Origin: a virus
Taxonomy: Duplodnaviria > Caudoviricetes
Virus record (IMG/VR): IMGVR_UViG_3300014205_000173
Direction: 5' to 3' (one strand)
Length of the DNA: 64,000 nucleotides
The translations under genes and the position numbers were made by a program. Position 1 is the stretch's first letter, and each line of letters starts with the position of its first letter. Below are positions 15,101 through 43,174 of the stretch, piece after piece. Below the pieces are notes generated by a model that made no database searches, had not been told where the DNA came from, and worked only from the letters and a program-made list of their open reading frames with translations.

Positions 15101-18100
15101 AGGGGCATACACTGTATTTACGTTTTGAATCCAAGGATCATTTTGTCCTGAAGATGCTCCAAATGAAGTTATATCAAAAGAAACTTCTGTTGATGTAGAA
15201 AACTCCTGTATATCTTTAAACTTATGTTTTAACTGCATTAGCAATGTTAAAAGATTACTTGTTCTTATCCCGTCCATTTCGTAAGTAAGACCCATTGTTT
15301 CTAAAGAAAAAGAATCTTCAATTTCTTTGTGAGTATACTTTCCGGTATCTGTTATGTGCGAATCTTTTACTGTTATTCTTACTATATCTTCTATATTTAA
15401 TGATTTGTTAAAGTTAAATTTAGCGTTATCTTTTGTCCAATATTCTAACAAATCTATTCCATTTAAATTTAAAGAAATTTTTTCTATATCTTTTGAAGAA
15501 ATATCAAAATCTTCAATAAGTGAAAACGTTTTATATTTAGACGCAATTGTTATTGAATCTTCTATGCTTTGTGTTGAACTAAATTGTATTGATTGTCTAA
15601 ATGGATCAAAAGAATATGTTTCTACATTATTGGTTTCATACAATTCAGATTGAGGTATTCCATTAATAAGACCTAATGGTTCTAGTTTTGAATAAACCTC
15701 TACAACTAAATCTTGTGGAATTTGGCTAAAATCAGCAGAGTATCCGTTTCCACCTTCTACAACAATATAATTTCTATCACCTTCAATTCCAAATCCTATT
15801 ATTTTTAAAGGGTTTTTCTCATAAGCCCCACCAGCACCATCTGGAAAATATATCCAATCTCCTTCTTCAAGACCTTCAACCGCATTTGATATTTCGAACC
15901 CAAACGCATATCCGTATTCAGATAAAGACTCAAAACTACCAACGCCATAACCCATTTCAAATGAGTCAAAATCAAAAACATCAAAATAATTTAAATCTAA
16001 TCCATAACCATATCCGTAACCATATCCATAAGATCCATTTTCTTTTATTACATAAATTTTATTTTGAACAGAATCTACTCCAACAATTTTTAAATATTGT
16101 TTAGCTGAATTAAAAAAATTCTTATCTTCTGGCTGTCCAAGAAGTTGTGTTATATTTCTCCACGAACTACCCTTATCTGTAGATTGAAAAACACCATATT
16201 TACCTAAAGAAAATACAACATCGTCTGTTGTTGAAAGGGAATCTTCTTTATATATTCTATATGACGGATACAGTAAATCATTTATTGATGTTACATAATC
16301 TAAATTTTCAGATCTATTATACTCTACTGGTATTAAAGAATAATCAAATGACAGACTAAAAATTCCATCATCTGCTGATAAAACAAACTCGTCATTAATT
16401 ACCCTAATATCATTTAAGTCTTTTGAAGAACTAAAAGCTTCAGAAAATGTACAAGAATCAATTTCGTAGTTTACGCTAGAAATTGAAGTAAATGTTTGAT
16501 TAGAAACATATAGGTTTTCTGTTGTTAGAATAAAAAGCCTTGAATCATAAAACATTACTTCTATTGGAGTCCCCGAAAAAACAAAAGAATGTTTTGTCCA
16601 CTCTTTAATCATTCCAGATCTATAGAAAGACCCCTCTTTTTTTGGAAACGTTTTAGATAAAGTTCCCTGAAGTGCTATTTGTGCAGAATACGGAGAAGTT
16701 AAATTATATTGTATTAATGATATTTGTTTTTTTTCTACAAGCTTGTTTCCGAAAAATATTAAAATATCACCACTGTCTACTAATTTATTTGTTAGTCCAT
16801 CCCAAATAGTATTGGGCTCAAAAGTAATAGATGTTAATTGTGTGGTATTTGAAGGTATTGTAGATTCAAATCTATATTTTCCTATAGAGTTAAAATAAAG
16901 AGACCCTTCCTCTCCAACAAAAATAATGTCATTAGATAATTCGTCTTCATAATTTAAAGAAAATATCTTTGTTGCAGTTGTCCAAGTAGGCTCTCCAGTA
17001 ACATCAACCCACGTATATTGATTATCAACATAATCAAAACAATACACTTTTCCACTATCAGTTAAGATATATACTGTTTTTTCTAGATTTAAAATTCCCT
17101 TTCCAGAAACGGCAGAAACTATTCCACCTATAGAATCTACTTTCGAGTAATATATGTTATTTGTTCTTATATCTGACGGAGAATCTCCGGTTGTGTTCAG
17201 TACCTGTAATATCTTAGGAACCGGATCTGCTGTAGAACTTAAATTTATATTTGACCAAGAAATTGCAACAACAAACTTTTCGCTTATTAAAAAAATTAAA
17301 TCCCAATTATTTGTTGTTGGAGAATTAGCCGTTTTTACTGGTAAAACACAAAAAGGGGAATCAAACTCCTTTAGGTTATCCGAGGTATCAAAATTTATAT
17401 TTTTCCACCCTTCAAAATATTGACCCAAAGTTGATCCCATCAAAAAACCTTTTCTTGTTTCACTACTTTTTTGGCTTTCATCAAATGGAACAACATAGTA
17501 TAAAAGTCCATCTTTCGTACACAAATGAACTATTTGTTTTGAAGGAGTAATCCCAACACCGGGAAGTATTTTTGGTTGACCAAAAATATCAAAACAATTT
17601 CTTCCTGTCATTTTTTTATTATATACAGGAAAAAATTCTTTAAGAAAATTTTTATCTATATTTTCCGTTTGATGAACAAACTCTTCCCCTGAAGATGGAT
17701 TGTCAGGCTTCATTATCTCATTAAAAATACCAACGTGACTGAGCCTAGGGATTAAATCTTCATTAATTTTTCCAGATTTAATACTTTCTCCGCTAATCTC
17801 TATATCTATTTTTTCTTGAGACGGATTTGTTTGGGAAATAATAAGTTTGTTTTTTATTTGTGTATAGTTATTTTTTACATAAAAAACTAATTGAACAGTA
17901 TCTGTAGAATCAAGTTTTTGAGAAAACTCTAAAGTTATTGTACTTCCACTGTCTGTTATTGTTACTGGATCTGTATTAAGAAACCCATTAATAAAAATAT
18001 CTAAATCATAAGTTCCGCTATCAAAAGAAAATCCATAATATTCACTAAAAGATTTTCCGTTTATTTTTTTATCAAAAATATATGTTTTATTATCAGTGTT

Positions 18101-19063
18101 TGTAGCATATCCAATCAATCCAGTTTGTGTTGTTAAAAGAATTTTTTCAGGACTTTTTGTAGAAAAATCATTGGTATGTTTGTGTTCTAAAAGATTTTTA
18201 TAAATAAAACTATCTGCCGATTTTGTAAAAACAGAAACCCTAATTGAACTATCTATTTTTATAATAGAAGTATCATCTGTTTCAATGTCTGAAAGTGCCA
18301 ATCCATATTTTGGCTCTATCCTAACCGTTATACTGTCTTCTCGGTGAAGTGGATTCTCAAAAATAAGAGTTTTACCATTTACTTCAAACCCATCATAATA
18401 TGGCTTTCCATTAACAAACGCTACAATTTTCTGCGTATTTGGATTGTACTCTCCATCTATTATAAAGTTTTTTATTGGATAATCAATGTCGTTTGGACTT
18501 GGTGTAGTATTTCTATATGGTCCTGTTTTACCAGAAAGCTCACTATTGCCAACAGATGGGCTAATTGTTATTTCTGTAAAATCATCCCACTCAATCAACT
18601 TATCCTCAGTAACTATTCCCTGAAGATCTTGAGCTTGAATTTTTCTTATTGATTCTGGGCTAAGTCCAACAAAAACAACGCTTTTTCTATTTACCCCAAC
18701 GGCAGAAGATATGTTAATTTCTGTTTTTGTTCTTATTGCTAAATAATAAGTTTCTTTAACAACTTCTCCGGTTTTTTCGTCAAAAATTTTATTTCCGGTT
18801 AAAACATCTATTTTATCTTGTACAAATGGTATTATTCCTATTCCTGGAGAAATAGTTAACCCTAGATTTCCATTGGTTGTATTTTGAAAAACTTCCCACC
18901 CATTAAGAATTCCACCACCAGTAATCTTCAAAAGAGATTCTAATTGATTTTCTATTGTTTGAAATCTCTTATAATCTGCATCAGAATAATATAGATCGCC
19001 GTCATCAAAAAACTCCATTCTATACGTTGGTGTTTTTTTTAGCTCTGGTCTTTGTCTAATCAT
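164..19063 (-). CDS. Giant (6299 aa) tail fibre/appendage protein with multiple BNR/Asp-box beta-propellers, Reg_prop-like blades, FN3-like and VxxNG beta repeats
   Basis: About 12 S-x-[DN]-x-G-x-x-W boxes (STDKGSSW, SYDYGNNW, SRDRGLTW, SLDGGDSW, SNDDGNIW, SINSGISW, SNDNGIKW, STNDGTSW, SIDFGLSW); IFKDSNDAYWIAT/IFEDNFGRIWLAL blades; HKH motif; N-terminus homologous to the 1403-aa protein; no signal peptide; lies downstream of the tape measure gene. Confidence 0.75.
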   Translation of the reverse strand: MIRQRPELKKTPTYRMEFFDDGDLYYSDADYKRFQTIENQLESLLKITGGGILNGWEVFQNTTNGNLGLTISPGIGIIPFVQDKIDVLTGNKIFDEKTGEVVKETYYLAIRTKTEINISSAVGVNRKSVVFVGLSPESIRKIQAQDLQGIVTEDKLIEWDDFTEITISPSVGNSELSGKTGPYRNTTPSPNDIDYPIKNFIIDGEYNPNTQKIVAFVNGKPYYDGFEVNGKTLIFENPLHREDSITVRIEPKYGLALSDIETDDTSIIKIDSSIRVSVFTKSADSFIYKNLLEHKHTNDFSTKSPEKILLTTQTGLIGYATNTDNKTYIFDKKINGKSFSEYYGFSFDSGTYDLDIFINGFLNTDPVTITDSGSTITLEFSQKLDSTDTVQLVFYVKNNYTQIKNKLIISQTNPSQEKIDIEISGESIKSGKINEDLIPRLSHVGIFNEIMKPDNPSSGEEFVHQTENIDKNFLKEFFPVYNKKMTGRNCFDIFGQPKILPGVGITPSKQIVHLCTKDGLLYYVVPFDESQKSSETRKGFLMGSTLGQYFEGWKNINFDTSDNLKEFDSPFCVLPVKTANSPTTNNWDLIFLISEKFVVAISWSNINLSSTADPVPKILQVLNTTGDSPSDIRTNNIYYSKVDSIGGIVSAVSGKGILNLEKTVYILTDSGKVYCFDYVDNQYTWVDVTGEPTWTTATKIFSLNYEDELSNDIIFVGEEGSLYFNSIGKYRFESTIPSNTTQLTSITFEPNTIWDGLTNKLVDSGDILIFFGNKLVEKKQISLIQYNLTSPYSAQIALQGTLSKTFPKKEGSFYRSGMIKEWTKHSFVFSGTPIEVMFYDSRLFILTTENLYVSNQTFTSISSVNYEIDSCTFSEAFSSSKDLNDIRVINDEFVLSADDGIFSLSFDYSLIPVEYNRSENLDYVTSINDLLYPSYRIYKEDSLSTTDDVVFSLGKYGVFQSTDKGSSWRNITQLLGQPEDKNFFNSAKQYLKIVGVDSVQNKIYVIKENGSYGYGYGYGYGLDLNYFDVFDFDSFEMGYGVGSFESLSEYGYAFGFEISNAVEGLEEGDWIYFPDGAGGAYEKNPLKIIGFGIEGDRNYIVVEGGNGYSADFSQIPQDLVVEVYSKLEPLGLINGIPQSELYETNNVETYSFDPFRQSIQFSSTQSIEDSITIASKYKTFSLIEDFDISSKDIEKISLNLNGIDLLEYWTKDNAKFNFNKSLNIEDIVRITVKDSHITDTGKYTHKEIEDSFSLETMGLTYEMDGIRTSNLLTLLMQLKHKFKDIQEFSTSTEVSFDITSFGASSGQNDPWIQNVNTVYAPGAFVGRSITFSKNNKNYKYTISANTLHRFYIQRVYCYEYFVANGSESTFTLLKGEGKQGTFTVFKNGNKLTSSDFTENLLSDNVISIELVSATLNGDNIFIKYINTDDDFEISTLFENLQSVTIPAMDNSITSKLTNIFVSNYRDNDFIIDLDRSFIENEIYSENSTDIGDVDYVLFYVFNDSVNNKFYAGTDENIWIRDVNSIIYSKTGVILETLNPIGNSSFDEKIDGAYIQYNNETNEWTVIWGGQPVISDINLDISTVKVNNVIVVDDKICFAGTDRGFYRTLSGSNTWEYVWNTIFDKNTKDSPEILNLVLDDKHPWILNAILESGLYRSYDYGNNWIWLAGNSEKTFTTFSYQKDLSDSRSVYYYGNDSLFVKKYSSETENISSKTNEISTDLLFGSNFISSSILKIVNNKSDVDKVYFGMNFLGVYSSELLGGSGNIARTNFSANNYGTASNSISFDSIGIEKTGALHDSYSPAINYSLYVSSEKTDTKRMFYQVDVDPVVAKVLEDHKFVDYFAKMPDGKFYKILDNYDRGPVYEFNYLLNDKNETLDVRRMEFVLEGTYPYFANRSGANIDSESGDYWYSTNEPFGEALNTISISFTKESNGEDSRVMLGSFDDKNAYAVKSTIWTDSNTSEDETVLIVDYETVSEIPLEYQTEDALSGYYVGNPKNKLFYKVYNSKVLGVLDQYYDGEASPARGQLALRIEKKEDSDEANWNTIYKTEDPYYLWHKYFGLEIHNNWRAILRDPSSVNSSPDFYNDFEYDFTTSNTQKIFSSNLEGRTYVVYDDLFEDGKNQASILLSYEDELSTDYSVDNSLLGFIIKDPSCNYEYEVTASKKLVSGDTYYSANYHRVQCRIERYDGSYDKISLYSDGSYSDIQTDRIKLTNRVGLNEENLIGSFVYFEKRPFITFRVKEIDGDYIVVDSTNLNSFVQEGEILKCKYQIEERTCKDLVITSSGKLFTVSDNFVYTDRSTDTQKWYCISDGLELNPDTNLPYAKFSSLCFDNTGNYLYAASPTNIYGGVYVHDSSTTNTDFTKILSDSDLINNEKITSIDLYRDISNLILYLGTSDNGVFKGVSDALNPLTSIWTWTKIVFPENDISSIETVVDQDANIDLDRIWIGTDGSGIFKRDQISNSYLENSWIGNIPSEVSSKDINSSEWKVWRVNDGIDNLYPIVLDDDGSVVYEKIESPGTITNGIFDWDQQERYDKKLGNLYYVLDSGNINYITDSFGEGSGWNGNTIISESSRNKHKFSNVATSSVTNNERKKEEDLKGSGSVSPNSKTFFKFDFMFNGQNGESPYEEPFKHHPDKNSIVKIIPLSGGDTRLLVITDRDGVFLSGNAERYLLPEPLSGYLDDYTTYGYAFSETQFDEAQDELIEYPGYRYTNQGYSKDFSENTKFNKLLEKLFMFEIDSTHPAYSDIGSFISAYGSESLLNSYLIISKGVDEVGGIKDPITFIVKSVELSGLKYKIKLSIGRQNSQSEGNFSILENPTYPVDNYIGFSWENGFSWDGYDRFVFMDAQEYVKINNGLPSDFNALDIGGEKTLEILIRDAVEDGSNGVYLACGINGVYYCPDVTVVSPTWSQLSGSSDKYAISIAYGTADDGTLYVGTIKEGVWRYVLLTTTWYQYTGLEKHPQVWCLYADGKTVYAGTEHGGVYSSGDSVIFVRMSGCVRSKIFSWKTVGVPPRKEDVLNNSVFDYSENYNLLSYSYGGGIMVSRDRGLTWEQANNGLKNLYVQEVSICPNNSNIVYAATCGGGVFKSINAFDESGGVTSIVWESCSTEFLPITLNVDEVSVGTNPNIIYIKCRVNDFSIKDSPNRIKKYLFGKPLINSDDLSSGELLWVYDSPENLITDGKSYYPYCPYDFGTRKHVIYKSLDGGDSWQSVYDIELVSSGISENIFKSENMISGLTVVHGGSDEIKFISSYKIEYKLGSNNYFFEKMSYTTMTFDADNNFVFSEKEIPASDFRLFGELLMTPSLLKSEGHLSINPKDKNEVFLTIQYNDAFSRFVKVPILYSNDDGNIWERRVSVFNSETTPGFNSPVQFSTRQTSQDIDFNVSYLSEYSESLTLEGIYTKRGFNEESFLWDSVRDLARVDNKFINIDFQTNDQWNNSSYKLNLFLDANKIPRPFTLKDATLIADNVNEPNNIYTVENSGYGEYYHRNTNSSLNSQTTTLKLNSAFNGDSLIVGETSTCLLSNLTSFKIPYSEASLNTILSKENLLVGREISFGENTYTIAFHRVYNDLVIGQQYVELILIGDAVANLSGIFSINIGSPIYSNYNNKLYVSINSGISWSEVDTDFDISSFKIIDIEDVPGEFIGNTFDRVFFAAFILGNEYKLRVGTINDSRYVDGSRSAIEWTDISLPVTFENILGSGLKFVNSQYGNFLFVTSSNSIIKKQIDTNSANLLTGEWIEVRSESEITYPIVVSETNNDRMAFISNNRILVSKDSFTSESSSYKGEFLPGEDSSNYLVSKILLNPSGENEDEIFVSINNPREAFTASASILSLNVSENTNEITISNSGSFGSNPFIPENIWVKRPVIFRENGINFSFSSKIVESQGNKLVLLPTIIFNISGVEYSPLINETKITGTVSNTNENILIEDYNGNIFICYTDTEEIIRGRVSRISLEEDTVILSLNGDYAIEFTNRNIDFSLDVLLKIGSVEDILGFEGMVPESQFGNFVVSSSRPSSSNSNNGIYISNAFGVDWNQISVSESNGFVDGCVDFNVNDNGSINAVVTNGNSTRIFINDSWIPSENIKKVDVDSFGNLYFITDNGYCKTTLDLDSPNESVFKTNTFLDCKEFFIENKDIVVVDTDDNIYSNNKDSFVFNGSELFVPSNRNIKNINKIFKDSNDAYWIATESDGVNVFIGSNFYNFGVIEIGSLNVFDIFEDNFGRIWLALGADGISVISYVIENGSITNYTVERYSESSGFKGEVKAISQTNGLDYISSGENSPPGIFLTWANNSSVYPNSLLSRSKSEIRPVYEDRVYNINQTLGQIFSIQEDTISVDGENFLAWKIVAQNFSVTSGQSIGTNSLVNQYMLVNVRENDISRKVLANALDTVYVERVDGESEISSSGKNFLITEMVGEDHCILFSGDSNSINSSINDVSLICPDTYYYYLDFYDASGRRVEIDSKKISISLTDQFAQNASRIVVATTKGLWSFEGGPTPFIVKNQFNEAENITNIFVDTSNILYVSAGDILIQVTDNNRVDFGKNDLFSDNLLGVENKVLEVRNVIEGLSQEIIIATSIGLCIKRSDGTFLSFIEEDPRTIYREDKFNIGSWRPVYVLSGNPISSDFFVDKTSTSGMYSYSNIILNTVNNGRRWNEVVLLPYEIKGVLEIENSLGTIIDYVMFSENLISSTGEDSVLEDFDFISNRENIKVFDRTSSIGSPSHIYLSEASSVSENPIIFAGVFDNRITETEVEICKIKFNSQNDTNQDPTEIVGLPTNIGSAEGLSIQTIYRITKDSVSGDFYAGGKDNILILENGSSIWHPFEFSEENDSDIIEHCYTDLVVRNDSTALECSVVIYATRSALYGKITHDFVILRPQEVDLEKRITSIDVKQSFIENLSWVDRPGMNSYNWEATNHFTIGNHRGAICFLNAINVILVGGFDNKLFLMPFTSDRNDEIKNYHKKVSLISGRRNREATQLTITSQLDTWTQIFSGRKDLYDSKFMPRNSWGINFSEDSDETEVGIVSYLIFGQNSNYFETYYEHTPALNSSFLYRSYGCDMMFWEPFIVPNQPNGIFSDFKYYDGTLYSTSIYGSGKDNVGLFAIDLTTGWDKQDRSLTGNEQQYFNIPINEITVTENLIIPTLGFGIHQYDSLTFSGLESRFFTQYGIEYGRWNITCISQDPNNQNRVVVGTSNRGLMNGIYNSIDGGTTFRWEWSCDQFGFESGNITCAEILSVNSDIILVGVKDDGLYIKDSETKVYAKSTEGLPTTGDVVQIRINSFVSKTENSVQIENNGETILIIRSSYENPKENPTNAQEYSVGNEIFNSEVVYIGLDNFSESLYVDNDITLKSGIPYFYRIYDIGIGNIYTERDRMQGLTSELDGLNVYISGNVFSGKDLTGRILSVNTVIVRPLCFEISYNSYDSQTGLTTVGLVSDIYRIINQGNANIFDRFSVPYRVESTLIKKPRIVKPIWMVFKEQGSLYSKVYISNDNGIKWVEKTNGIPSNADILNIEISETEETRNFIKHVLYISTDIGIYYSTNDGTSWAKLSLDSNGLPDTGYKQVLVDTQDFRILYAITSTEDIYRSIDFGLSWNLILNCGSGLNKYSIVSEFSNSIFLGFDSLGIKKYYDPIREEFNVQVDSDSLITNVTFDNFEMGDEIFTDSNTIIAKTYPKNDNILSNFEKITFKTDDLTKYLTFKISRKEEKFGLDEIKIGQDEVNPLTIPFLLQNPEYDSGYIKVNKIGKLDSDENFAISNKGVHTTSNNGTTWQKLTSSFIPSNIKDLISLSDNSIILATDNGLWSSDVDRVNYRNVEQLDSEINVIWESVDKGVRRIFRGGENGLYITVERPISKTIITYSGDISIKKSIQFSWGSISNPNDGGWTDKTEEMLSKSVWAKSSMSSSLLEYKGWDSALIVRYGPFSTFEIAESYSNGVWLPENGSVYPNGFSSPESGFSFGKSAKFENSDSGLLFEESSNQKKYVGSQDSITYHTNGVIFIGDFPNVNSPNNYPQGKNYPTTDFPIIDRVDATIGEARRIEADGSFSITSTGYLENKADIRAYEDLITNGSSMTNKELLTALREDSDYKKQLAPILKSNMYYAYRVFPYRLIPDPTEIDGSGSFLTTPRYKRATGDLVDSFSFIVDIEKFSGSKRILCGVSTLSGNWIVGTNSGLFYSTENGQNVIKSQNLSSNLVGYKFVSMIYTSSNVVLAVAVSNSLNDIRFVRNSSDFTNESFDSNWEFLNNLSSLLDDVGANIVFNLEESNGKIYISTNKGVFLGNEDGTEWKFIGRVGNLESISGGKVLGQEFIIE
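15893..16036 (-). repeat. Gly-Tyr tag, copy in the 6299-aa protein
   Basis: GSYGYGYGYGYGLDLNYFDV...GYGVGSFE..SEYGYAFGFE. Confidence 0.9.
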
Positions 19064-26597: not shown

Positions 26598-26609
26598 ACA
26601 AAAAACTCC

Positions 26610-32456: not shown

Positions 32457-32491
32457 ATTTTAAATCCTCCGATTTTCAACTTATCATACGA

Positions 32492-35077
32492 TTAAATGTT
32501 CTTAAACTTAATAACAATTTTAGAATAGTCTAAATTCGATTGATTAATTCTTATTTCTAAAAATCTATTTAAAGTACTACTTTCAGTTATAAATTCTAAA
32601 ACCTCATCAACATTTCCTGTATATTCTGTAACTATCCCATTTTTATCATAAATATCTAAAACTACTTTGTCTGCAAATCCTGGAGAATCAATATTTAAAT
32701 ATAGTATTTTTTTGCTGTATTTCTGTGGGACAGAAAAACTATTAAAAATAATTCCACCAGAAGAAATGGCTATCTTGTTTGGAATTAAACTAGAAAAATT
32801 AGTATTAGATCCGCTTTCAATATAAGCATTTACCTTTACAGTGCCTATATCAAATCCAAAAAAATAAAAAAGTGACTCGTCTCTTATTGAGACTTTCTTT
32901 GAAATACCACCAAAATCTTCTCCCCTTTCACGAAAGTTTGCAATAATTTCAGATGGAGCATTACCTAACACTTCAAGATCAACTGGTTTGTATGAAAGAT
33001 CTCCCGTGCTTTCTAAAATAGCATATCTAAAAGCTTTTGTCCTTTTAACATCATATTTTATATGATCATAGACAAAAGTAACCTCATCTGGAAGATATGG
33101 AAAAACTCCTAAATAATCAGAATTATCTAAGGAGTTTTTTATATTTCCAAAAAAAGTAAGAGATGTTGATGTACTTTTCTTTATTTTATAATTAAAGATT
33201 TTATTACCAACTCTAATTACAGCGTATTGTCCAGACAGTGCATTTGTATCTATGTCATTTAAATCTGTAGATTCGTCTAGTCTTTCTGTATCAATAAAAC
33301 TAACATTTATACTATGCCTTACAAATGGATTTCCTGTACCAAATTGATATACAAAAAAATCACCAAAAAATGAAGCATCTAAAACGGTCTCATTGCTTTC
33401 TCTTAAATATGTAACTGAAAAATTATTAATATCTTTTATTTTATTATTATCTTTTATTTTTATATAATGACTTGATTTTTGATAAAAAAATAGTTTAAAG
33501 TTGTTTGTATTTAAAGATATTTTTCCACTTGAAACAGTTGCCTCTTCTGCATCTATATTAAAATAAAAATCGTTCGGATCAATATAGGTGTAAGGTTTTT
33601 TAAATTCAATATTCTCCTGAATATTACTTCTATTATTTATTCCTGAAACATAAATAATTTCGGCTTCATTCCTAAATGACTGGCTAACTCCCCTTTCCAT
33701 TATACATTCAGAAGAATTGTTTTGAACAATATTCCTAACTGGAGGCCAAGTATTTATAGAATAATTTGGAAAATCAAAATAGTAATTTACCAAACCCTGA
33801 GACGCAGATTCTGTTTTATTTGTATCAACATTGAAATTTAATGTTTTGTCTTTTTGCCTATATGAAGAGTTTTTTATTTCTTCAACAGAAGATCCATCTG
33901 GTGCCTTTACAAAATTTAAAGAAAATGGTATTAGATTAATTTTTTTTGGTTTAAATACATCCGCAGAACTACAAACAAGATAAGAAGAACTAAACTCATC
34001 TTTATCTGTATCAATATTTCTTGTAATAAAATTTTTACCATTATCAAGTTTTATATTTGTTTCAGGTAAAAACGTTAGATTCCTTGTATAAAGTATTGAA
34101 AAAGTCCCATATCTAACCCTATCCAAAGAAACAAGGGCGTCTATCTTTACTCTTGATGGAAGGTTAAATTTGAAAGAAAAATCAACATAATCATATCTTA
34201 TGTCATTCACGAAAACACTTTGTATCGGAAGTGCTCCAATTACAGTTTCTATTCCCTCCTGATTTACAGAAACATTTACTTGCTCTATAAGATCCGTTAG
34301 GTATGGAAACATTAACCGACACTCTCTTTCAAATATAATGTCATCTGACGATAGAATTTTTTTATAATATTCTTCCCCGGGAGGAGAATATGGTGTTTTG
34401 TGTTCTATTGTAGAACCAATTATAGTTCTATTTGAAGCTAAACCAACTGCACTATCAAAAAACTCATTTGCTATTGTTTTGCCAGTAACTACCATATAGT
34501 TACTTCTATCAAATCCAGTATTTATATATCCACTAGATTTTCTTACTTGAACTTTAAAATTAAAAGTTGGATCTATTGATATTGGGAAATAACGAGAATC
34601 ATAAGATTTTGAAGAAAATTTATAATTTATTCTTCTCTCACCATCTAAAACCTCTAATTTGCAAAAATTATCCAAATTAGTGTTCTTATTATGATTCTCA
34701 TAATTTATTTTAAGACTTGAAAATGAAAAAATTTCTATTTGATTTTTACCAACTATCTTATACTTGTTTTCACTTTCATCATAAAACAATAAACAGTTTT
34801 TTAAATTAAAACTCAAAGAAAAATCTTTAGCTGCACTCTTATCCCAAACCTTAATTTCCTCTTTTATTTCAGAACTTTTCAATAAAAATATAATATCAAT
34901 TTTTTTAAAAATATTTTTAAGTTCTAAACGATAAGATCCATCTTCCTGAGAAAAAACCTTTGGTTCAAAATTACAATTTTCGGGATAAATCATTTCAAAT
35001 TGATATTTTTGATCAACCCCAATTAATAGAGACCTCTTTTCAACGTCTACTGAAAAATCATAATAAAAATCTAACAT
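32492..35077 (-). CDS. Hypothetical protein (861 aa), probably virion-associated
   Basis: Long ORF in the operon; RYFPISIDPT motif; TNALSGQY..YKIKKSTSTSLTF repeat shared with neighbouring structural proteins. Confidence 0.5.
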   Translation of the reverse strand: MLDFYYDFSVDVEKRSLLIGVDQKYQFEMIYPENCNFEPKVFSQEDGSYRLELKNIFKKIDIIFLLKSSEIKEEIKVWDKSAAKDFSLSFNLKNCLLFYDESENKYKIVGKNQIEIFSFSSLKINYENHNKNTNLDNFCKLEVLDGERRINYKFSSKSYDSRYFPISIDPTFNFKVQVRKSSGYINTGFDRSNYMVVTGKTIANEFFDSAVGLASNRTIIGSTIEHKTPYSPPGEEYYKKILSSDDIIFERECRLMFPYLTDLIEQVNVSVNQEGIETVIGALPIQSVFVNDIRYDYVDFSFKFNLPSRVKIDALVSLDRVRYGTFSILYTRNLTFLPETNIKLDNGKNFITRNIDTDKDEFSSSYLVCSSADVFKPKKINLIPFSLNFVKAPDGSSVEEIKNSSYRQKDKTLNFNVDTNKTESASQGLVNYYFDFPNYSINTWPPVRNIVQNNSSECIMERGVSQSFRNEAEIIYVSGINNRSNIQENIEFKKPYTYIDPNDFYFNIDAEEATVSSGKISLNTNNFKLFFYQKSSHYIKIKDNNKIKDINNFSVTYLRESNETVLDASFFGDFFVYQFGTGNPFVRHSINVSFIDTERLDESTDLNDIDTNALSGQYAVIRVGNKIFNYKIKKSTSTSLTFFGNIKNSLDNSDYLGVFPYLPDEVTFVYDHIKYDVKRTKAFRYAILESTGDLSYKPVDLEVLGNAPSEIIANFRERGEDFGGISKKVSIRDESLFYFFGFDIGTVKVNAYIESGSNTNFSSLIPNKIAISSGGIIFNSFSVPQKYSKKILYLNIDSPGFADKVVLDIYDKNGIVTEYTGNVDEVLEFITESSTLNRFLEIRINQSNLDYSKIVIKFKNI

Positions 35078-36876
35078 TGCTCATTGACGATCCGTTTAAT
35101 TTCATCTTCTGAATATATCATACATGGAACTTCTTTACATCCCATATCTCTACATGGAACGCATGGCAAAATACCTTTTTTGAAATATATTTTATTTCTG
35201 TTCCCATAATATCCACCATCTCTTAGATTTGGATCAATTGGACCAAAAAAAGCCTTACATGGAGTTCCTATCAATGAAGCCATGTGAAAAACACCAGTAT
35301 CGGGAGTATAAACACAATTACTTTTTTTTATCAAAATCATTAACTCTTCTAAATCTAAACTAAATCCTAAATCTAAAACATTTTCTTTGTTTTTAATTTT
35401 TTCCAAATTTATATCTACACTATTTCCAACAACAAATACCTTATTGCCTTTTTCGGATTCTAAATCAATTATCTTCATTGCGACATCATTTGGAAAACTT
35501 CTAATAAGACAGGTTCCGCTCATACAAATTACGATTTTTTTCTGATTATTCTCTTCAAAAATTTTATTAAACCTTTCCTCTTTCTGCTGATCTATTAAAA
35601 ACTCAGGAAAGACAGCTTCAACTCCATCTACTGGAATTGAATATAAAAATTTTTCAATTCTATGAATATCTCTTTTATCGTAAAACTCTACATATTTAAT
35701 CCAATTTTGCACAAAATCAAATCTTTCTTCAAATTCTTTTATTTTTTTTGAATTATCAATATTTTCTCTTTCAGAATACGAAAAATCATAGTTTAAATTT
35801 ATTGGAATAATTTCATCTATACATTTAAATCCTTTTATAAAATTAAAATTCTCAAATTTTGTCATGTATGTAATTTTTGTATTTGGAAAAAGATTTTTAA
35901 ATCCTTGAATTGCAAACATTGACATTATTATATCACCAACGCCACCTTCCCTTATGAAAAGAACTTTAGCTCCATTGTAGAATTTAGTATACATTTTATT
36001 TTTTTTATTTGTAATTTCAAAATAAGATTTAACTTTTTCTTTATATAACAGTTCACTTTCTTCAAACTCTAAGGAAAAGTTTTTTCCCGGACCATCCGTT
36101 GTTAAATTTCCATGATGATGAACAAAAACATCTAAAGCCAAAACAGGATAGCTTGCTTTAGACATTGCAATATCATTTAAAATTTTTGCTTCGCTTCTTC
36201 TTTTTAAAAAATCAACATCAAATCCATTGCAATCAAAAAAAACTTTAGATTTAAACATTGTACAAAACACACACATTTCTTGAACAATTTTAAAATAGTT
36301 TAAATTTTGACTTTTAACATTTTTACTATAGGAGTCAAAACCATCAAACTCACAATAAATATCTTCTAGATTTTTTTCTATTTCCTCTGTTGTAAAAAAT
36401 GCTTTAGAATAAAGTTTTTTTTCAATGAAAATATCTTTTATTTCTTTATCAAATGAACAAGGAGTTTCTTCCGTACAATAGCTAGCTCTTGGGAAAATAC
36501 AAGACCAGTCCACGACATCTTTATTTTCAATTAACTTTACATGGTTTATAAAAGAATCCAACCAACCACAACTAACAAATACATCGTTGTGTAAAACTAC
36601 AAAGTAATCAGAATTTTTCCCGTGATCTTTTATTGCAGACATATACGCAAACGATACTCCAAGCTCCTTTTTATGATAAACGTATTCTATGTCAGAAATT
36701 AAAGACTCTGAAAATTCCTTTACCTTTAATCCTATTTTCTCATCACTACCATTATCAATTAAGATTAATTTGTAGAGATTTGGATTTGTATTTTTAGCTA
36801 AATACTCTACAGCTTTTAAGGTCCAAAATTTTTGGTTCTGGAACATTAAAAATATTGGTATTTTCTTGACTTCCAT
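35071..36876 (-). CDS. Bifunctional glycosyltransferase: N-terminal GT2 (GT-A) + C-terminal GT9 (heptosyltransferase-like, GT-B)
   Basis: LILIDNGS, FVVLHND, FVHHHG (GT2); VLFIREGGVGDIIM, DTGVFHMASLIGTPCKAFFGPIDP and C-terminal CVPC..C...CM (GT9). Confidence 0.9.
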   Translation of the reverse strand: MEVKKIPIFLMFQNQKFWTLKAVEYLAKNTNPNLYKLILIDNGSDEKIGLKVKEFSESLISDIEYVYHKKELGVSFAYMSAIKDHGKNSDYFVVLHNDVFVSCGWLDSFINHVKLIENKDVVDWSCIFPRASYCTEETPCSFDKEIKDIFIEKKLYSKAFFTTEEIEKNLEDIYCEFDGFDSYSKNVKSQNLNYFKIVQEMCVFCTMFKSKVFFDCNGFDVDFLKRRSEAKILNDIAMSKASYPVLALDVFVHHHGNLTTDGPGKNFSLEFEESELLYKEKVKSYFEITNKKNKMYTKFYNGAKVLFIREGGVGDIIMSMFAIQGFKNLFPNTKITYMTKFENFNFIKGFKCIDEIIPINLNYDFSYSERENIDNSKKIKEFEERFDFVQNWIKYVEFYDKRDIHRIEKFLYSIPVDGVEAVFPEFLIDQQKEERFNKIFEENNQKKIVICMSGTCLIRSFPNDVAMKIIDLESEKGNKVFVVGNSVDINLEKIKNKENVLDLGFSLDLEELMILIKKSNCVYTPDTGVFHMASLIGTPCKAFFGPIDPNLRDGGYYGNRNKIYFKKGILPCVPCRDMGCKEVPCMIYSEDEIKRIVNEQC

Positions 36877-37348
36877 AAATATCTCTCACTTGAAAGTTTT
36901 TAATTTTTATTGGCGCCACATCTGGCAATTTATTTGGATCACCAAATGTTAACTGATAGTTTGGTGTGTTCCCAAAAGCAACATCTTTAGATTCAATAAA
37001 CTTATCATCATAAACATTTCCTACATATATTGCATTTTTATTTTTCCCATAAAAAATTTCTATCGAATACTCTACGCCGATTTCAATACGAATATTGGAT
37101 TTAATATGATACCAATAAAGTCTTTCTACATCATACCTGCCAAGAAGAAGGTTAATACCATAACCACTATTTTCCAAAGATATATGAAATGATGGCTCAA
37201 AATCTATATTTGAGGCACAAAAAAAAGAATAAATACCACTAATATTACCAAATACAGTAATAAAAAAATTAATTTTACCAGAAAATGGTAATTTTCTTAA
37301 AAATACCTTCTCCTTTTGTGTTTTTATTATTTTTTTAACAATATCCAT
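36794..37348 (-). CDS. Hypothetical protein, possible concanavalin A/LamG-like fold (184 aa)
   Basis: All-beta pattern IEIGVEYSIEIFY..NAIYV...LTFG...IKIKNFQV; fills the gap between two GT genes and overlaps the next start by 83 nt. Confidence 0.45.
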   Translation of the reverse strand: MDIVKKIIKTQKEKVFLRKLPFSGKINFFITVFGNISGIYSFFCASNIDFEPSFHISLENSGYGINLLLGRYDVERLYWYHIKSNIRIEIGVEYSIEIFYGKNKNAIYVGNVYDDKFIESKDVAFGNTPNYQLTFGDPNKLPDVAPIKIKNFQVRDIYGSQENTNIFNVPEPKILDLKSCRVFS

Positions 37349-37351
37349 AAA

Positions 37352-38473
37352 TTATTTGCTTAAAATATCTATAATTTTGTTTGAAATAATCTTGTCTGAA
37401 AAGGTTTCTACCATTTGTTTTGAGGCCAACTTCCCCTTTTCTCTTGCCTTTTCTATGTCACCAAATACTTCTTTCATCCTCTCTATAAGACTATTCTCAT
37501 CTATTTTAACCCATTTCTTATTTTCAAAATTAGGATTTATTTTACACATCTCCATACTCACATTTTCAAACCCATCAATATCTACAAGATATGAATTTTC
37601 AGAATTCATAAACTGTAAATTTCCAGAATAGTTAGTTGCAATTGTAGGCTTCCCTAAAAACATCATTGAAGACAAACAAAGACCCCACCCCTCCCCCCTA
37701 TGAGGAGAAATAAGACAATCAAAACTATTCATAAAATTTGGCATTAATTTTTCATCAATAGGGTCGCCATAAAAATATATTGTTGGAATTTTATTTTTAG
37801 GTATCTTACTTTCTATAATTATTTTTTTAATTCTTTCTACTAACTTTTTTTGATCAACTAATGAGAATGAATTAAAATAAGCCTTTATTGTAAGAGAAAC
37901 ATCTCTATTCCCCTCAAACGCTTTTATGTAATTCTTAATTAATATATCTCCACCTTTCCTTGGAGTATAGTCTCCAACAAATAAAAAGTTAAACCCCTTA
38001 AGATTTTTTATATTCATTTTTTTAACATCTGAATTCCAAATCAATGGATCATGACAATGAGGAACTATATGAATCTTTTCTGATATAACACCACTATCAA
38101 TAAAATTATTCTTTGAAAATTCGCTAGCAGTCATTATTGTGTCGCAAGCATTGCAAATATCTACCCATCTTTCTGGAATTTCCATTTCACAAATAGTATA
38201 TAGAATATTTTTATTTTTAAATGAAAACTTCATTGAATCAGGAACACAATGATTAACAACTGCATTTAAATTTTCAAAATTATTTACTGCCAAATTAGAA
38301 TGAAAATTTATTTCATTGCTATCAATTCCCTGTAAATTAATATTATATGAAACATTTGTAATAATTGTATTTACTGTGCATCTATCATTTTTATTTAAAG
38401 CGTGAATATATGACCTTGCACACGATGAGTACCCGCTAGGGTCAATTGCTGTTATCCATCCAATTTTCAACAT
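37352..38473 (-). CDS. Glycosyltransferase family 4 (GT-B)
   Basis: SGY N-terminal loop, FLFVGDYTPRKGGDILI, FDCLISPHRGEGWGL..MMFLGKPTIATNYSG. Confidence 0.9.
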   Translation of the reverse strand: MLKIGWITAIDPSGYSSCARSYIHALNKNDRCTVNTIITNVSYNINLQGIDSNEINFHSNLAVNNFENLNAVVNHCVPDSMKFSFKNKNILYTICEMEIPERWVDICNACDTIMTASEFSKNNFIDSGVISEKIHIVPHCHDPLIWNSDVKKMNIKNLKGFNFLFVGDYTPRKGGDILIKNYIKAFEGNRDVSLTIKAYFNSFSLVDQKKLVERIKKIIIESKIPKNKIPTIYFYGDPIDEKLMPNFMNSFDCLISPHRGEGWGLCLSSMMFLGKPTIATNYSGNLQFMNSENSYLVDIDGFENVSMEMCKINPNFENKKWVKIDENSLIERMKEVFGDIEKAREKGKLASKQMVETFSDKIISNKIIDILSK

Positions 38474-38675
38474 CCGTTATTTCCAGTAACTCAAATTCTT
38501 CTTCTGGGTTTTCGTCATTAATTTTATTTTTATTCTTAAAAACAAAACTTTTTTTAAAGAAAGAAACTATATCCTCAGTTCCCCAATCATTTGGGTAATA
38601 TATTTCTCCCTTAGACGGGAAAACATTCCCTATTTTTATTGTTTTTATTTTTCCATCTTTTATTCCAGCTATCAT
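38442..38675 (-). CDS. Hypothetical protein (77 aa)
   Basis: ATGA overlap with the stop of the 1403-aa gene; fills the gap to GT4; composition matches neighbours. Confidence 0.6.
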   Translation of the reverse strand: MIAGIKDGKIKTIKIGNVFPSKGEIYYPNDWGTEDIVSFFKKSFVFKNKNKINDENPEEEFELLEITDVENWMDNSN

Positions 38676-41600
38676 GTACTAAAAACCAACCCGTCAAATG
38701 ATGATGTAAATAAAGGTCTAACACTATTTGCTCCAATGCTAAACTTAACTGAAGCGTCAGAAGTTTCCCTTCCCCATTCCCAGTTTTTAGTACCATCTGG
38801 CTTTATCTTTTCAAACCTAGAAATACTATCGGCACCAGCCACGCCTCTCTTTAAGTCACTTAAAGCAACATAAATATCTCCATAATCTGTGTTTTCAAAA
38901 GTTTTTGGATCAAATCTAGCATCCATAGGATAAGTACCATCATCATCTAAACTGATTTGTGTTGGCAAGTCATATGTACTTGTGGTACTATTTTTTCTGA
39001 AAACATAAAGGCCATTATTTTTCTCTCCAGTTAATGATATAAGTAAAAACTCACCTTTCTTTTCGATAGAGCCCTTTATTCCAAAAAAACTATTTGTTTC
39101 AAAAGAAGGGTTAGACTCATTTTCAAACCCAAAAGATCCTTGTGGGAAATTTGAATTTGATTCAATCTTACTCAAAGAACTAGACTTATAAGCTTCTCTT
39201 GGATTTATTTTCATATACCAAGATTCAAAAATAGAGTCATCCCAGCTATAAGGTCTTGCCTTTTTAAGAATATACATGTATCCATACTCGTCTATATTGA
39301 AAGCAACAGTTCCTTGAATCGGCAAAAACATAAGATTATAACTATTTGTAACAGAACCTTTATTCCCTATTTTCAATATATTAATTCTTTGATTTGCACC
39401 ATTTAGGTCCTCAACAGGAACTTCAGAGTTTTCGAACTTAACAATAGAAGATGCTGTAGGAATTAATGTTTCACTATCAGGATGGAAATTCACATCTAAA
39501 ATTGGACTAGAAATACTTTCAATCCAATTACCAGTTTCTGCACTTACAAAAAACGCCAAAACACCTCTATCTACAGCATAAATACTTTCTGAATCAGAAA
39601 GATTTCTAGAAAGACCTTTATACCTTATGTTGAAGTTTTCTGGAATAACATTTATATCACTTTCAACCGAAGTATCATTTGGTGTAATTACACCGTCAAA
39701 CCAAGATGAAATCTCATGACTAAAAATAACATAAAGAACACCATTATCTCCCAATTGCCTATTAAAAACAACGTTTACCACCTTCCCTTCTAAACTAGCA
39801 GGTATTGATGGATCGGCTTCATAAACCCTATTGAAAGCAAACTCGGAAACATACATATTTACAATATCACGATTAGTGTCTATCTCTATAATTCTACTTG
39901 AGTCTCTATCTAAAAACATTATATTACCACTTGACATTATCTTTAAATCAGTAATATCACCAACCAAGCCAGAAGATTCCTCATTTAAAATCTGAAGTGC
40001 TGTTTTTGGTAAATTACTTCCAGTATAATTATTAGTATATTTTTCATTAAATGTGGATTTAAGCTCTGTTACTTTCTTGTTTGATCCATAAATAATATTT
40101 CCAGTTCTAGAAGTTTCTAATATTGAAACTTCACCTGAAGTAATTTTTGTATTTTCAATACTTCTATATGAATCAAAATCATCTTGTGCAGATATTGTCA
40201 AAGAACCTGATGTTGTTTCTGTAGAATAATTTATGGTTAAAGAATTTAAAACAGGAGTTGCCTTATTATCGCTTGTTGGAAGTAAAACAACTCTTATTGA
40301 AATCCCATATGAAGTACTATATATTTGTGAAAAAACTTCAGGTAATGATTCTCCTGAAGACAAATACGTTCTTAATAAATCACCTGAATCAGGTCCAAAC
40401 TCCTGAACAAACAAAGAACTATAAACTCCTCCCTCCATAAACTCAGATGACTTCTTTGTAAAGAAAAGGTTTTCTCTATAGTCAGACTCCCCTGCATCAG
40501 CTCCAACTATAATTGATGCATTTTTCTTTATCTGTAAATAAATTGCAGAATCTCCGGGTTCTGTTGACACCCAAGAAATAGACTCAATAGATATGGGATC
40601 TGGAAAATCTATAGTTAAATTTTCAAGTTTGTTATTGTCTATATTAGAAGAATATTCAAAAGATCCTGAAAAATACACGTTGTTTATATCAACTAACATT
40701 TCAGATAACTCAATAGAATCAATAACCTCTAACTGAGATCTAGAACCTTGAGGCCAACTTAAAGGTTTTGCTTGGTTTTGAATAACATCATAACCGTCGT
40801 CTCTTGAGGTTAAAAGATATATGCCAGTAACTCCTACCTTTAAAACATCCCATCCCGGATCAGTTAATGCAGTGCTAGGAGGTGTCGTTACAGTGAACTC
40901 TAAAGAAGTGTCATCAACATACCCAAACAAAAATTCCATTTTTGAACTTACTAATTCGGCTGAAATAGTTACTGTTGGAACTCCATTTTCATCCAAATCA
41001 TTTGATTGAAATGGCTCATCGTCTCCACGACCAAAGAACCTATATGTAGACGGCACTGAAGAGTCACCTATATATCTATAATAATATCTTGCTGGATATT
41101 CAGAATAACTTGGATTAGTTACCTCAATAATGAGGTCCATATCGTAATCATATGTCCAATTAGGATCTAAAATAGCATCTGAACTATTTGTTTGTTTTAA
41201 TAAGAAATTTAAAAACATATTTTCAGAAACATCATAAAGATCTTCCCAAACAGCAAACATAATAGATTTATCACTTTCTATTCTTGTTATGTTTCCATCC
41301 TTTACAGATAAAATACTTGTGTATGAATACATTGAAGTAGAATCTGGAGTTGTAGAAGAAGATACGTTACTAGATCTTCTTTTTTTACCAGAAACAATCC
41401 CGTCATAAAGGCTTGCTGCTTGTGATCCAAATGAAATTAATTTTTTAGAATCAATATATGACGGACTAGTTGTTGCACTTAGTAATGGATAAGAAGTAGC
41501 CCTGTCCGTTGTATCTAATAAATCGGAGTATAGGTCTCCATCATCTTTGCTATGAACTAATTGATCCGCACCTAATGGATTTAGAAATATAATTGCGTTT

Positions 41601-42883
41601 CCAGTTCCATTAAAACCAAATCCATATTCAAATCCATAACCATATCCGTAAGAGTTTTCATAAACTAATTCAAAATTATTATCAAACCCATCACTAATAC
41701 CGTGTCCACTTAAGCTTCCATCATAATCAAAAACTTCTTCATCTAAACTAAAAGTATCCTTAAAATTAGTATATATAACATCAAAATAATCCAAACCATT
41801 ACCATATCCATACCCATAACCATAAGCTTGATCTGAATCAAGATTCCCAGTAATTGTAATAAAAATAGGGTTATATTCACCCTCTTTAAACTCTTGTTCT
41901 GAATTAAATGTATATTGACCAAGATCTCTTGAGTTTACAAATTTACCTTTTATTAAATGACTTTCAAAATCCAACTCTGCTGTTGTAGCATTAATATCTA
42001 TAAAACTTTTTGGATTAAGAAGTTCGCTATTTCCTATTCCGGGAATAATGGCCGCAAAATTAAACATGTAATCATCAATATTTGAAAAAACATGTTTCAT
42101 TGATAATATTAATTGTATTAAATTTGCAGTCATAATATCGCCAAAAAGCAATCTATTTAATGTTTGCAATTTTTCAACTAAAGAGTCTATCTCTTCGTGA
42201 GTTAAAGTTCCGATGTCAGAAAGATCATTGTGGCTCAAACTAAATCTATCTTTAGGAATTATACCACTTGTAATTTTTGAGGCAGGAAGATCTTCAATAT
42301 TTGCCGCACTTAAAACACCCTTAACGTGATTAAATAAATCAATTTTATCAGGCTCTCCCGGAGCCCCAGTATGAACGTGGTCTTCTATTAAAGAAGAAAT
42401 AAACCTTATTAACTCTAAACTTTTTCTACCTGATTCTTCAGTCATGTTTATTTCTGCAATATTACCATTCTTATCTACCGTAATATATCCTAAAGGTAAA
42501 TAAACATCAAAACTAAATGTTTCTGTAGTTATTATAAGCTCACCCTGTGCTGTATATGGCGTTTTTCCTAAAACCTTCATATAAACATTATTTCTTAATA
42601 AAGAACTGTCTGTTGGTAATGTTGGAGATTCCATCAGATAATCTGATGAAGTTGAAGCAGCTATTGAAGAAATTACTCCAGAGCCTCTTGTAACTCTAAT
42701 CTTTTTTAAGTTATCATTATCCTTTACAATTTCCCACCCAGAAATAACGCCATCACCCAAAAAGGTGAATATAGCTTCAAGCTGTCTATCTATTGCCATA
42801 AACCTAGTCCTATCAATAGGTCCAGTTAAAACCTCTCCAGAAGAAAGATAGGGCAATCTATATATACTTGTAAGCTTTGGCAT
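38672..42883 (-). CDS. Tail fibre/tail-tip protein (1403 aa), paralogue of the N-terminus of the 6299-aa protein; C-terminal propeller-like region
   Basis: N-terminal YR.....G.....D..RF..I..QLE....G.G...GWE block, HVH motif, ASKITSG repeat, Gly-Tyr tag; AGGAG SD; two genes downstream of the hub-like gene. Confidence 0.7.
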   Translation of the reverse strand: MPKLTSIYRLPYLSSGEVLTGPIDRTRFMAIDRQLEAIFTFLGDGVISGWEIVKDNDNLKKIRVTRGSGVISSIAASTSSDYLMESPTLPTDSSLLRNNVYMKVLGKTPYTAQGELIITTETFSFDVYLPLGYITVDKNGNIAEINMTEESGRKSLELIRFISSLIEDHVHTGAPGEPDKIDLFNHVKGVLSAANIEDLPASKITSGIIPKDRFSLSHNDLSDIGTLTHEEIDSLVEKLQTLNRLLFGDIMTANLIQLILSMKHVFSNIDDYMFNFAAIIPGIGNSELLNPKSFIDINATTAELDFESHLIKGKFVNSRDLGQYTFNSEQEFKEGEYNPIFITITGNLDSDQAYGYGYGYGNGLDYFDVIYTNFKDTFSLDEEVFDYDGSLSGHGISDGFDNNFELVYENSYGYGYGFEYGFGFNGTGNAIIFLNPLGADQLVHSKDDGDLYSDLLDTTDRATSYPLLSATTSPSYIDSKKLISFGSQAASLYDGIVSGKKRRSSNVSSSTTPDSTSMYSYTSILSVKDGNITRIESDKSIMFAVWEDLYDVSENMFLNFLLKQTNSSDAILDPNWTYDYDMDLIIEVTNPSYSEYPARYYYRYIGDSSVPSTYRFFGRGDDEPFQSNDLDENGVPTVTISAELVSSKMEFLFGYVDDTSLEFTVTTPPSTALTDPGWDVLKVGVTGIYLLTSRDDGYDVIQNQAKPLSWPQGSRSQLEVIDSIELSEMLVDINNVYFSGSFEYSSNIDNNKLENLTIDFPDPISIESISWVSTEPGDSAIYLQIKKNASIIVGADAGESDYRENLFFTKKSSEFMEGGVYSSLFVQEFGPDSGDLLRTYLSSGESLPEVFSQIYSTSYGISIRVVLLPTSDNKATPVLNSLTINYSTETTSGSLTISAQDDFDSYRSIENTKITSGEVSILETSRTGNIIYGSNKKVTELKSTFNEKYTNNYTGSNLPKTALQILNEESSGLVGDITDLKIMSSGNIMFLDRDSSRIIEIDTNRDIVNMYVSEFAFNRVYEADPSIPASLEGKVVNVVFNRQLGDNGVLYVIFSHEISSWFDGVITPNDTSVESDINVIPENFNIRYKGLSRNLSDSESIYAVDRGVLAFFVSAETGNWIESISSPILDVNFHPDSETLIPTASSIVKFENSEVPVEDLNGANQRINILKIGNKGSVTNSYNLMFLPIQGTVAFNIDEYGYMYILKKARPYSWDDSIFESWYMKINPREAYKSSSLSKIESNSNFPQGSFGFENESNPSFETNSFFGIKGSIEKKGEFLLISLTGEKNNGLYVFRKNSTTSTYDLPTQISLDDDGTYPMDARFDPKTFENTDYGDIYVALSDLKRGVAGADSISRFEKIKPDGTKNWEWGRETSDASVKFSIGANSVRPLFTSSFDGLVFST
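41606..41828 (-). repeat. Gly-Tyr tag, copy in the 1403-aa protein
   Basis: AYGYGYGYGNGLDYFDV...GHG...FE...NSYGYGYGFEYGFG. Confidence 0.9.
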
Positions 42884-42889
42884 TTATTA

Positions 42890-43164: not shown

Positions 43165-43174
43165 TTTTATCTCC

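Follow-up and report, generated by a model that had tools for sequence, protein, structure and literature searches.

Several docking or branching domains are shared by the receptor-binding proteins (RBPs) of one and the same phage, such as the T4 gp10-like 'XD' domains of the CBA120 tailspikes, N-terminal anchors and the 'conserved peptides' of Klebsiella and G7C-type phages. An element of similar character, small, recurring in different appendage proteins and more conserved than the rest of them, is encoded in a stretch of 64,000 nucleotides (nt) from the virus record IMGVR_UViG_3300014205_000173 (Duplodnaviria; Caudoviricetes), called here the window. As judged from sequence, this element, the YG cassette or tag, is a genuine and undescribed protein module of ~50–60 residues without a named family and with cassette-like evolution. 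Within the reach of the searches it occurs only in a single clade of large uncultured phages, in their block of tail-appendage genes. A known RBP anchor occurs singly, mostly at the N-terminus, and its partner has been demonstrated, whereas the YG cassette is internal, lies in loops and occurs one to three times per chain, with a copy number that varies between orthologues. No profile or PDB sequence match connects the tagged proteins with T4 gp10-like or XD domains, the tag being modelled with a predicted local distance difference test (pLDDT) score of 43–65 only.

Other described systems share single properties with the cassette. Cohesin–dockerin pairs embody the same concept, a portable module of ~60 residues that directs a variety of proteins to a common assembly. 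Dockerins, however, consist of duplicated Ca-binding loop–helix motifs at chain ends and have a known cohesin receptor, whereas the cassette is predicted to be all-β and is internal; no tag sequence has a Pfam dockerin match even at E ≤ 10. Ig-like decorations (Big_1, Big_2 and FN3) are likewise accessory modules of structural proteins with variable presence among relatives, but the cassette is not an Ig fold, has half the size, is far more conserved and is inserted within an Ig domain. Type A carbohydrate-binding modules (CBMs; CBM1, CBM5/12 and CBM10) resemble it in size (36–60 amino acids, aa), in being β-rich with rows of Tyr/Trp, and in being multi-copy and shuffled; the cassette differs from them by the absence of a profile match and of disulfides, and by an invariant Gly alternation and a terminal Glu not seen in CBMs. 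CBM5/12, CBM1, CBM10 and choline-binding repeats gave no Pfam match, and no PDB sequence match was better than E 0.34. Finally, prion-inspired (Gly-Tyr)n peptides (PMC8163036) and Gly/Tyr-rich structural proteins have the same alternating Tyr-Gly strand and the same tendency to form intermolecular β-sheets. The (Gly-Tyr)n peptides are free repeats of no fixed length, whereas the cassette has a fixed length, non-repeat LDYFDV, GYG and DFE cores and a set place in folded proteins.

The original prediction, made from the window's letters, had described an ordered motif in three virion proteins of 6299, 322 and 1403 aa. Regular-expression and hidden Markov model (HMM) scans recover it in each of them, in the order (YG)n–L[DN]YF[DN]V–GYG–FE–YGYxFG[FY]E, and a six-frame HMM scan of the whole window gives exactly these three copies and no other. 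All three match profile positions 1–72, with scores of 55–92 bits, and hold the five ordered blocks (YG run, L[DN]YF[DN]V, GYG, FE and Y[GSA]Y[GA][YFW]G[FYW]E). In the 6299-aa protein YGYGYGYGYG begins at aa 1012, LNYFDV at 1024 and YGYAFGFE at 1050; in the 1403-aa protein YGYGYGYG, LDYFDV and YGYGYGFE are found at aa 354, 364 and 412; in the 322-aa protein YGYGYG (aa 34) is followed by LDYFNV (139) and YSYGWGYE (172), the cassette consisting here of two parts (aa 29–40 and 137–194) with ~100 residues between them. The three proteins are not the whole set, as a gene of a fourth, two-copy family starts at position 167. Its ATG (167–165) overlaps the TGA (166–164) of the 6299-aa gene, which suggests translational coupling, and most of it lies beyond the left edge of the window. 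This genome thus appears to hold at least four tagged genes. They are regarded as virion appendage genes because of their position after the tail genes, and the original label 'virion' is likewise presumptive. Coordinates are compiled in the table, where P-numbers denote homologous proteins, L-numbers related metagenomic contigs and G001 a related 140-kb IMG/VR contig.

Table. Cassettes, tagged genes and associated features of the window (positions in nt)
Feature	Position	Strand	Remarks
6299-aa giant appendage gene, one cassette	164..19063	-	full-length orthologues at ~30% identity
YG cassette, 6299-aa protein, aa 1006-1064 ('site B')	15872..16048	-	HMM score 55, independent E value 1.8e-17; orthologous copies in P0013, P0019, P0033, P0016, P0012
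1403-aa fibre-like gene, one cassette between conserved N-terminal third and variable rest	38672..42883	-	
YG cassette, 1403-aa protein, aa 349-433, 15-aa insert after LDYFDV	41585..41839	-	score 82.5; same place in 17 family members
322-aa gene; Big_1 Ig-like domain with first strand (~aa 22-29) parted from rest (~aa 190-282) by cassette	25629..26597	-	
Split YG cassette, 322-aa protein, aa 29-194	26016..26513	-	HMM match, score 91.9; motif residues invariant in P0004-P0006 at 51-58% identity
Predicted nested beta-barrel, 322-aa protein, aa 50-132, between YGYGYG strand and LDYFNV	26202..26450	-	AlphaFold2 pLDDT 85-95; absent from compact small-family homologues
5' end of next gene, N-terminus of two-copy tag family (family tags at ~aa 135 and ~455)	1..167	-	N-terminus match; same gene order in L009
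N-terminal domain, 6299-aa protein, aa 9-81	18821..19039	-	common to 1403 family
N-terminal domain, 1403-aa protein, aa 3-72	42668..42877	-	common to giant family
TH..NL..L..KH block, 6299-aa protein, aa 1229-1288, downstream of cassette	15200..15379	-	weak, E 7e-4; repeated in P0013, P0012, P0030
TH..NL..L..KH block, 1403-aa protein, aa 213-272, upstream of cassette	42068..42247	-	
GT2-GT9 fusion, 184-aa open reading frame and GT4 genes	35071..38473	-	adjoin 1403 gene; syntenic in L001, L006, not G001; candidate modifiers

The cassette is under strong constraint at the protein level. A 72-position profile built from six copies (alignment A3) finds 74 matches at E ≤ 1e-3 among 1,835,955,588 representative proteins, all of them giant fibre-like or small Ig-like proteins from metagenomes. 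Altogether, 82 domain copies can be aligned in register, with the consensus YGYGYGYGxG-LDYFDV(F/L/I)-G.xG...GYG(V/I)-(0-10 residues)-DFE(S/T)xF...-YGYGYG(Y/F/W)E. Columns G8 and G51 are invariant (100%), G6, G27 and E53 nearly so (99%), as are Y5 and F16 (98%), and G4, G49, G29, Y7, Y3 and V18 are conserved at 89–95%, V18 being at 89%. In the 1403 and 322 families identity is 0.63–0.83 within the tag and 0.47–0.54 in the rest of the protein; for the tag at site B of the giant protein it is 0.54–0.61, compared with ~0.30 for the protein overall. Identical residues share the same codon only about half the time, the synonymous sites having diverged. A tag more identical than its surroundings, with diverged codons for the identical residues, shows that selection operates on the peptide. 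Among orthologues at 30–58% identity the cassette is the best-conserved segment. In the three orthologues of the 322-aa protein (51–58% identity) EGxYGYGYG, PSLDYFNV.GL.G...GYGYK and FE..YSYGWGYE are invariant, and the orthologues of the 1403-aa protein retain the motif at aa 351–355. Orthologues thus keep both YFDV and GFE, the elements whose conservation the original prediction had set against low-complexity drift and whose loss it had named as telling against the motif.

The statement that no named family covers the motif also stands. Neither the tagged proteins nor the tag alone have a cassette relative in Pfam, PHROGs or NCBIfam, and PDB searches by sequence with the tag and 1403-family profiles gave chance-level matches only, the best for the tag being an arrestin-domain protein (E 0.34). 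When a single back-translated pattern was run against 185,579 prokaryote species genomes, none of the 351 pattern matches encoded a relative; the cassette therefore appears restricted to phages, as far as a single-pattern scan reaches. In IMG/VR the alignment of the 322 family found no relative and that of the tag found one contig, G001, and the small-family alignment, used as query of a word-index homologue search, added four further sequences only. ESM Atlas gave no usable match, and no publication found in the literature search pairs YGYGYG with phage.

At the DNA level little is common to the copies. The shared sequence reported by the original prediction is present: the 14-mer AACATCAAAATAAT occurs at 15977 and 41777, with a one-mismatch version at 26166. 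It is the reverse complement of the codons for (N/D)-Y-F-D-V in AT-rich codon usage, a trivial by-product of codon bias, and therefore adds no evidence. A microsatellite origin is excluded because the Gly codons of the YG runs are mixed (GGA/GGT/GGG/GGC). The copies share just 40–56 nt at 75–90% identity, over the YG/LDYFDV codons, and this identity is no higher within than between genomes, so that the spread of the cassette must be ancient and without gene conversion. Three further candidates were rejected. A recent in-frame mobile DNA element (RPE-like) would leave nucleotide identity between copies beyond the level imposed by the protein, and none is seen; for an intein or other self-splicing element the cassette is too small and lacks Cys/Ser/His-Asn blocks; for an isopeptide or ester cross-link domain it lacks conserved Lys, Asn, Thr or Gln.

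The cassette occurs in diverse protein contexts. Giant proteins of 4,000–6,300 aa carry one to three copies and proteins of ~1,900–2,700 aa carry two, at ~aa 135 and ~aa 455. Members of the 1403 family have one at ~aa 350, at the end of their well-conserved N-terminal third, and small proteins of 160–250 aa, together with the 322-aa variants, have one at ~aa 30, the small family and the 322-aa protein being homologous from end to end except for the 100-aa insert of the latter. In G001 nine intact copies are spread over five neighbouring open reading frames (ORFs) of 1374, 4147, 458, 6289 and 2441 aa. Within the giant proteins, aligned full length, local alignments show the ~55-residue unit as cleanly present or absent at homologous positions. 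Site B (~aa 1010) is universal among giant orthologues; site D (~aa 5120) is occupied in P0019, P0033 and P0016, and empty in the 6299-aa protein and P0013; sites A (~730) and C (~2950) are occupied in P0013 and P0012 only. The prediction that the tag moved or was gained independently is thus borne out by gain and loss at several sites. It had been drawn from the position of the tag on opposite sides of the TH..NL..L..KH block, and this reversed order is indeed found: the tag precedes the block in the 6299-aa protein and follows it in the 1403-aa protein. P0013, P0012 and P0030 have the arrangement of the 6299-aa protein. A tree of 82 tags separates a small-family clade and leaves the remainder unresolved, the tags being too short for more.

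The surroundings of the cassette in these proteins have features of their own. Just upstream of site B lies an Asp-box, STDKGSSW, with 'YVGT..G.W' motifs nearby and weak matches to the sialidase-like NCBIfam F510_1955, and the flanks of the cassette in the giant proteins accordingly look like propeller blades, as far as sequence can tell. Insertions into the cassette occur at two fixed points, one of 11–15 aa after LDYFDV in most 1403-type proteins and, in the 322 group, one of ~100 aa that follows the first YG run. The giant and 1403 families also share an N-terminal domain of ~70–90 aa with the pattern P.YR....G......R...I..QLE.....G.G...GWE, found in four other giant orthologues as well; as a classical baseplate-attachment anchor this domain is more plausible than the YG cassette. 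In addition, the N-terminal region of the 1403 family contains the invariant stretch HVHTG.PGEP.KIDLFNHV, with an HxH motif (aa 169–171; 42370–42375, minus strand) that we take to resemble metal-binding phage fibre domains.

Structure prediction for the 322-aa protein points to domains nested in domains. AlphaFold2 gives a mean pLDDT of 70 with a 29-sequence alignment (A5) and of 33 with four sequences. The Ig domain (aa 190–240) exceeds 90. Tag segments 31–40, 141–144, 153–156 and 172–181 are predicted as strands with a pLDDT of just 43–65, so that the best-covered and best-conserved strands score low while barrel and Ig domain from the same alignment exceed 90. In VIA-align the model matches the Big_1 domains of intimin (1f02_I; Z score 11.9, root-mean-square deviation 1.6 Å, 80 residues, 25% identity) and invasin (Z score 10.9), with deviations of 1.6–2.1 Å over ~80 residues for the two. 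Because the Big_1 match spans the model range 22..282, the first Ig strand would precede the tag and the rest would follow it. The model thus has an intimin/invasin-type Ig fold, despite Pfam Big_1 (PF02369) scores below cut-off: the 322-aa protein has no match at E ≤ 0.01, and P0038 and P0083 reach 25.5 and 27.3 bits, below the gathering cut-off of 34.9. Foldseek against PDB and BFVD returned just generic Ig or tail-protein matches, with template modelling (TM) scores < 0.3. The nested barrel, covered by ~6 sequences of A5 and found in just P0001, P0004–P0006 and P0017, has only generic matches, to Upf1/HerA-type barrels (Z score 7.5–8.6). The 322-aa protein is thus modelled as an Ig domain that contains a cassette, which itself contains a barrel. 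A second Tyr/Gly-rich stretch forms the C-terminus of many small-family proteins, e.g. ..SYGYNHYGYGYNKFV (alignment A4, columns ~480–507), and the C-terminus of the 322-aa protein reads ..SYAFNEGEDL (25629–25700, minus strand). As a strand, the C-terminal Tyr/Gly stretch of the small family might pair with a cassette.

It is tempting, if tentative, to see in the cassette a protruding β-module with a tyrosine ladder, a common and phage-intrinsic contact by which appendage proteins dock to each other or to one shared partner. The module sits as a discrete unit in surface loops, which belong to propeller-like blades in the case of the giant proteins and follow the first Big_1 strand in that of the 322-aa protein. 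Its two long Tyr/Gly end strands would pair and bring the N- and C-termini together, adjacent termini being expected because the module inserts in loops. The result would be a protruding β-ribbon whose one face bears the tyrosine ladder and whose opposite face is bare glycine backbone; the distal end, with the DYFD, GYG and DFE elements, would form an acidic/aromatic tip. This ribbon surface would let the four or five appendage proteins attach to one another by β-zipper docking, or to a single phage partner common to all. No family is without a copy, and additional copies would mean additional contacts.

Two lines of reasoning lead to this docking model. First, a phage-intrinsic partner is favoured over a host receptor because one consensus persists in five unrelated host contexts, in paralogues and in phages that elsewhere share ~30% identity, unlike receptor-binding tips; because each family retains a copy or more; and because copies are numerous, with nine in five adjacent genes of G001 and at least four tagged genes in this genome. 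Secondly, alternating GYGYGYG heptapeptides self-assemble into cross-β fibrils (PMC8163036). Docking or zippering is ranked first because this self-assembly and the low pLDDT of the tag beside neighbours above 90 fit ordering in an intermolecular β-sheet; the low values in the model next to confident neighbours would fit conditional folding in such a sheet. Among the three functions originally proposed for an 'address tag' docking is thus the best fit, and the address reading is plausible. What has to be revised is the notion of a linear tag: a portable element under strong constraint is found, but it behaves like a small domain that sits within other domains and accepts insertions in two of its loops.

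Several observations weigh against docking. The low pLDDT may simply reflect a fold that AlphaFold has not learned. A stoichiometric docking site would not usually vary in number as the cassette does (one to three copies per giant orthologue), and an accessory adhesion module would explain this variation just as well. The tag tree has no sign of within-genome co-evolution or concerted evolution, DNA identity between the copies of one genome stays at the between-genome level, and no candidate receptor ('cohesin-like') protein was identified.

An accessory adhesion module, somewhat unlikely on balance, would use the tyrosine ladder and acidic tip as a lectin- or CBM-like platform for weak, multivalent binding of a conserved host surface polymer, in analogy to Ig-like decoration domains or type A carbohydrate-binding modules. 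Small, aromatic-rich and with conserved Asp/Glu, the cassette varies in copy number and position in surface loops of propeller and Ig domains; it is associated with a Big_1 domain of adhesin type, and a weak CBM_5_12 match is found in a neighbour, the 1948-aa protein. Host-binding parts of fibres, however, are usually the fastest to vary, whereas the cassette is the slowest-evolving segment and has one consensus in all families and phages. Moreover, no CBM or lectin family of Pfam or PDB resembles it, and in the 1403 family it occupies the proximal, conserved part rather than the variable C-terminus.

The docking model has a far-reaching version, unlikely as it stands, in which the ribbons form a self-complementary cross-β 'Velcro'. 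The ribbons of the giant propeller, fibre and small Ig-like connector proteins would zip together, or phage enzymes would tailor their tyrosines covalently or by glycan, into a megadalton mesh at the tail tip of huge groundwater phages, a new and portable way of assembly without homologues in cellular genomes.

Improbable, too, is a role as modification acceptor, i.e. a recognition element for O-glycosylation at Tyr or Ser/Thr by the GT4 and GT2-GT9 glycosyltransferases (GTs), or for Tyr cross-linking. Gly/Tyr-rich structural proteins elsewhere are cross-linked through Tyr. The tyrosines of the cassette would be exposed, and Ser/Thr follows FE in ~63% of copies. Genes for GT4 and GT2-GT9 directly follow the 1403 gene in the window, L001 and L006, and L009 and G001 have GT genes behind their two-copy gene. 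This synteny comes from one phage clade and is therefore not independent evidence, and the link to co-encoded glycosyltransferases, part of the original prediction, turns out to be weak: G001, with its nine cassettes, has no detectable GT2-GT9 homologue on 140 kb (the contig being ~42% complete) and no GT4 beside its 1403-type gene. Known glycosylation sequons, besides, are short and flexible, not modules of 55 residues with invariant Gly, Phe and Glu and insert-tolerant loops. No oxidase or peroxidase candidate was found within the window, nor a radical SAM match on the 140 kb of the ~42% complete G001.

Decidedly improbable is a purely structural insert, a rigid and self-contained β 'staple' that stabilizes or spaces its host domains without a partner of its own. 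Autonomous insertion with adjacent termini and strands predicted for all four conserved segments would suit it. A mere spacer, however, would not rank first in conservation or retain its surface residues in five unrelated host contexts, and orthologues that lack the cassette at sites A, C and D indicate that the host domains do not need it. The data argue against a simple spacer and, likewise, against drift. That the resemblance of the three proteins arose by chance, from low-complexity Gly-Tyr drift or slippage, has a negligible probability, despite the biased composition and a Gly/Tyr-rich KRTAP family as the only Pfam near-match (E 0.82): KRTAP-type repeats vary in length and lack conserved non-repeat positions, whereas the cassette has a fixed length, mixed Gly codons and conserved non-repeat residues (F16 98%, V18 89%, G27 99%, E53 99%), its orthologues hold register and position, and just 74 matches turn up in 1.84 billion proteins.

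The multi-thousand-residue appendage proteins of huge uncultured phages are entirely blank in current databases. With a sharp signature over 55 residues, the cassette is among the first recognizable and searchable building blocks in them. It marks a whole block of four to five genes with up to nine copies per genome, and it offers an example both of domains nested at three levels and of a unit cleanly gained and lost among orthologues. A docking role would account for the organization of the giant proteins on the virion and make the cassette a candidate for a small self-assembling or portable tag in protein engineering; a role as glycosyltransferase acceptor would make it a new kind of folded sequon.

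The window as a whole is AT-rich (~30% GC), and every large ORF is on the minus strand. Its proteins are assigned, in the protein collection, to a single contig of 287,662 bp, and GenBank phages gave no match to 38672–46165 (megablast) or to the 322-aa protein (tblastn). The 40-mer at the left edge of the window has no exact match in IMG/VR. Its identity as phage DNA follows from a minor-tail PHROG at 55507–56529, from PHROGs for a phage-type DNA methyltransferase and for glycosyltransferases, and from a gene order syntenic with metagenomic and viral contigs (ENA 'Hain_H43_01um', several JGI samples and one IMG/VR viral contig). Two small adjacent ORFs (54234–54896 and 54900–55412, minus strand), located where tail assembly chaperones are expected, are paralogues with 28% identity (E 8e-5). 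The 969-aa ORF at 51328–54237 (minus strand) has a TTG start and may be the tape measure gene; GC content is 0.377 in 52–54 kb, compared with ~0.30 elsewhere. Finally, homing-endonuclease genes (LAGLIDADG and GIY-YIG; weak Pfam marks) are found between fibre genes in L001 (8755–9702) and L008 (18009–18752), and are absent from the corresponding positions of the window.

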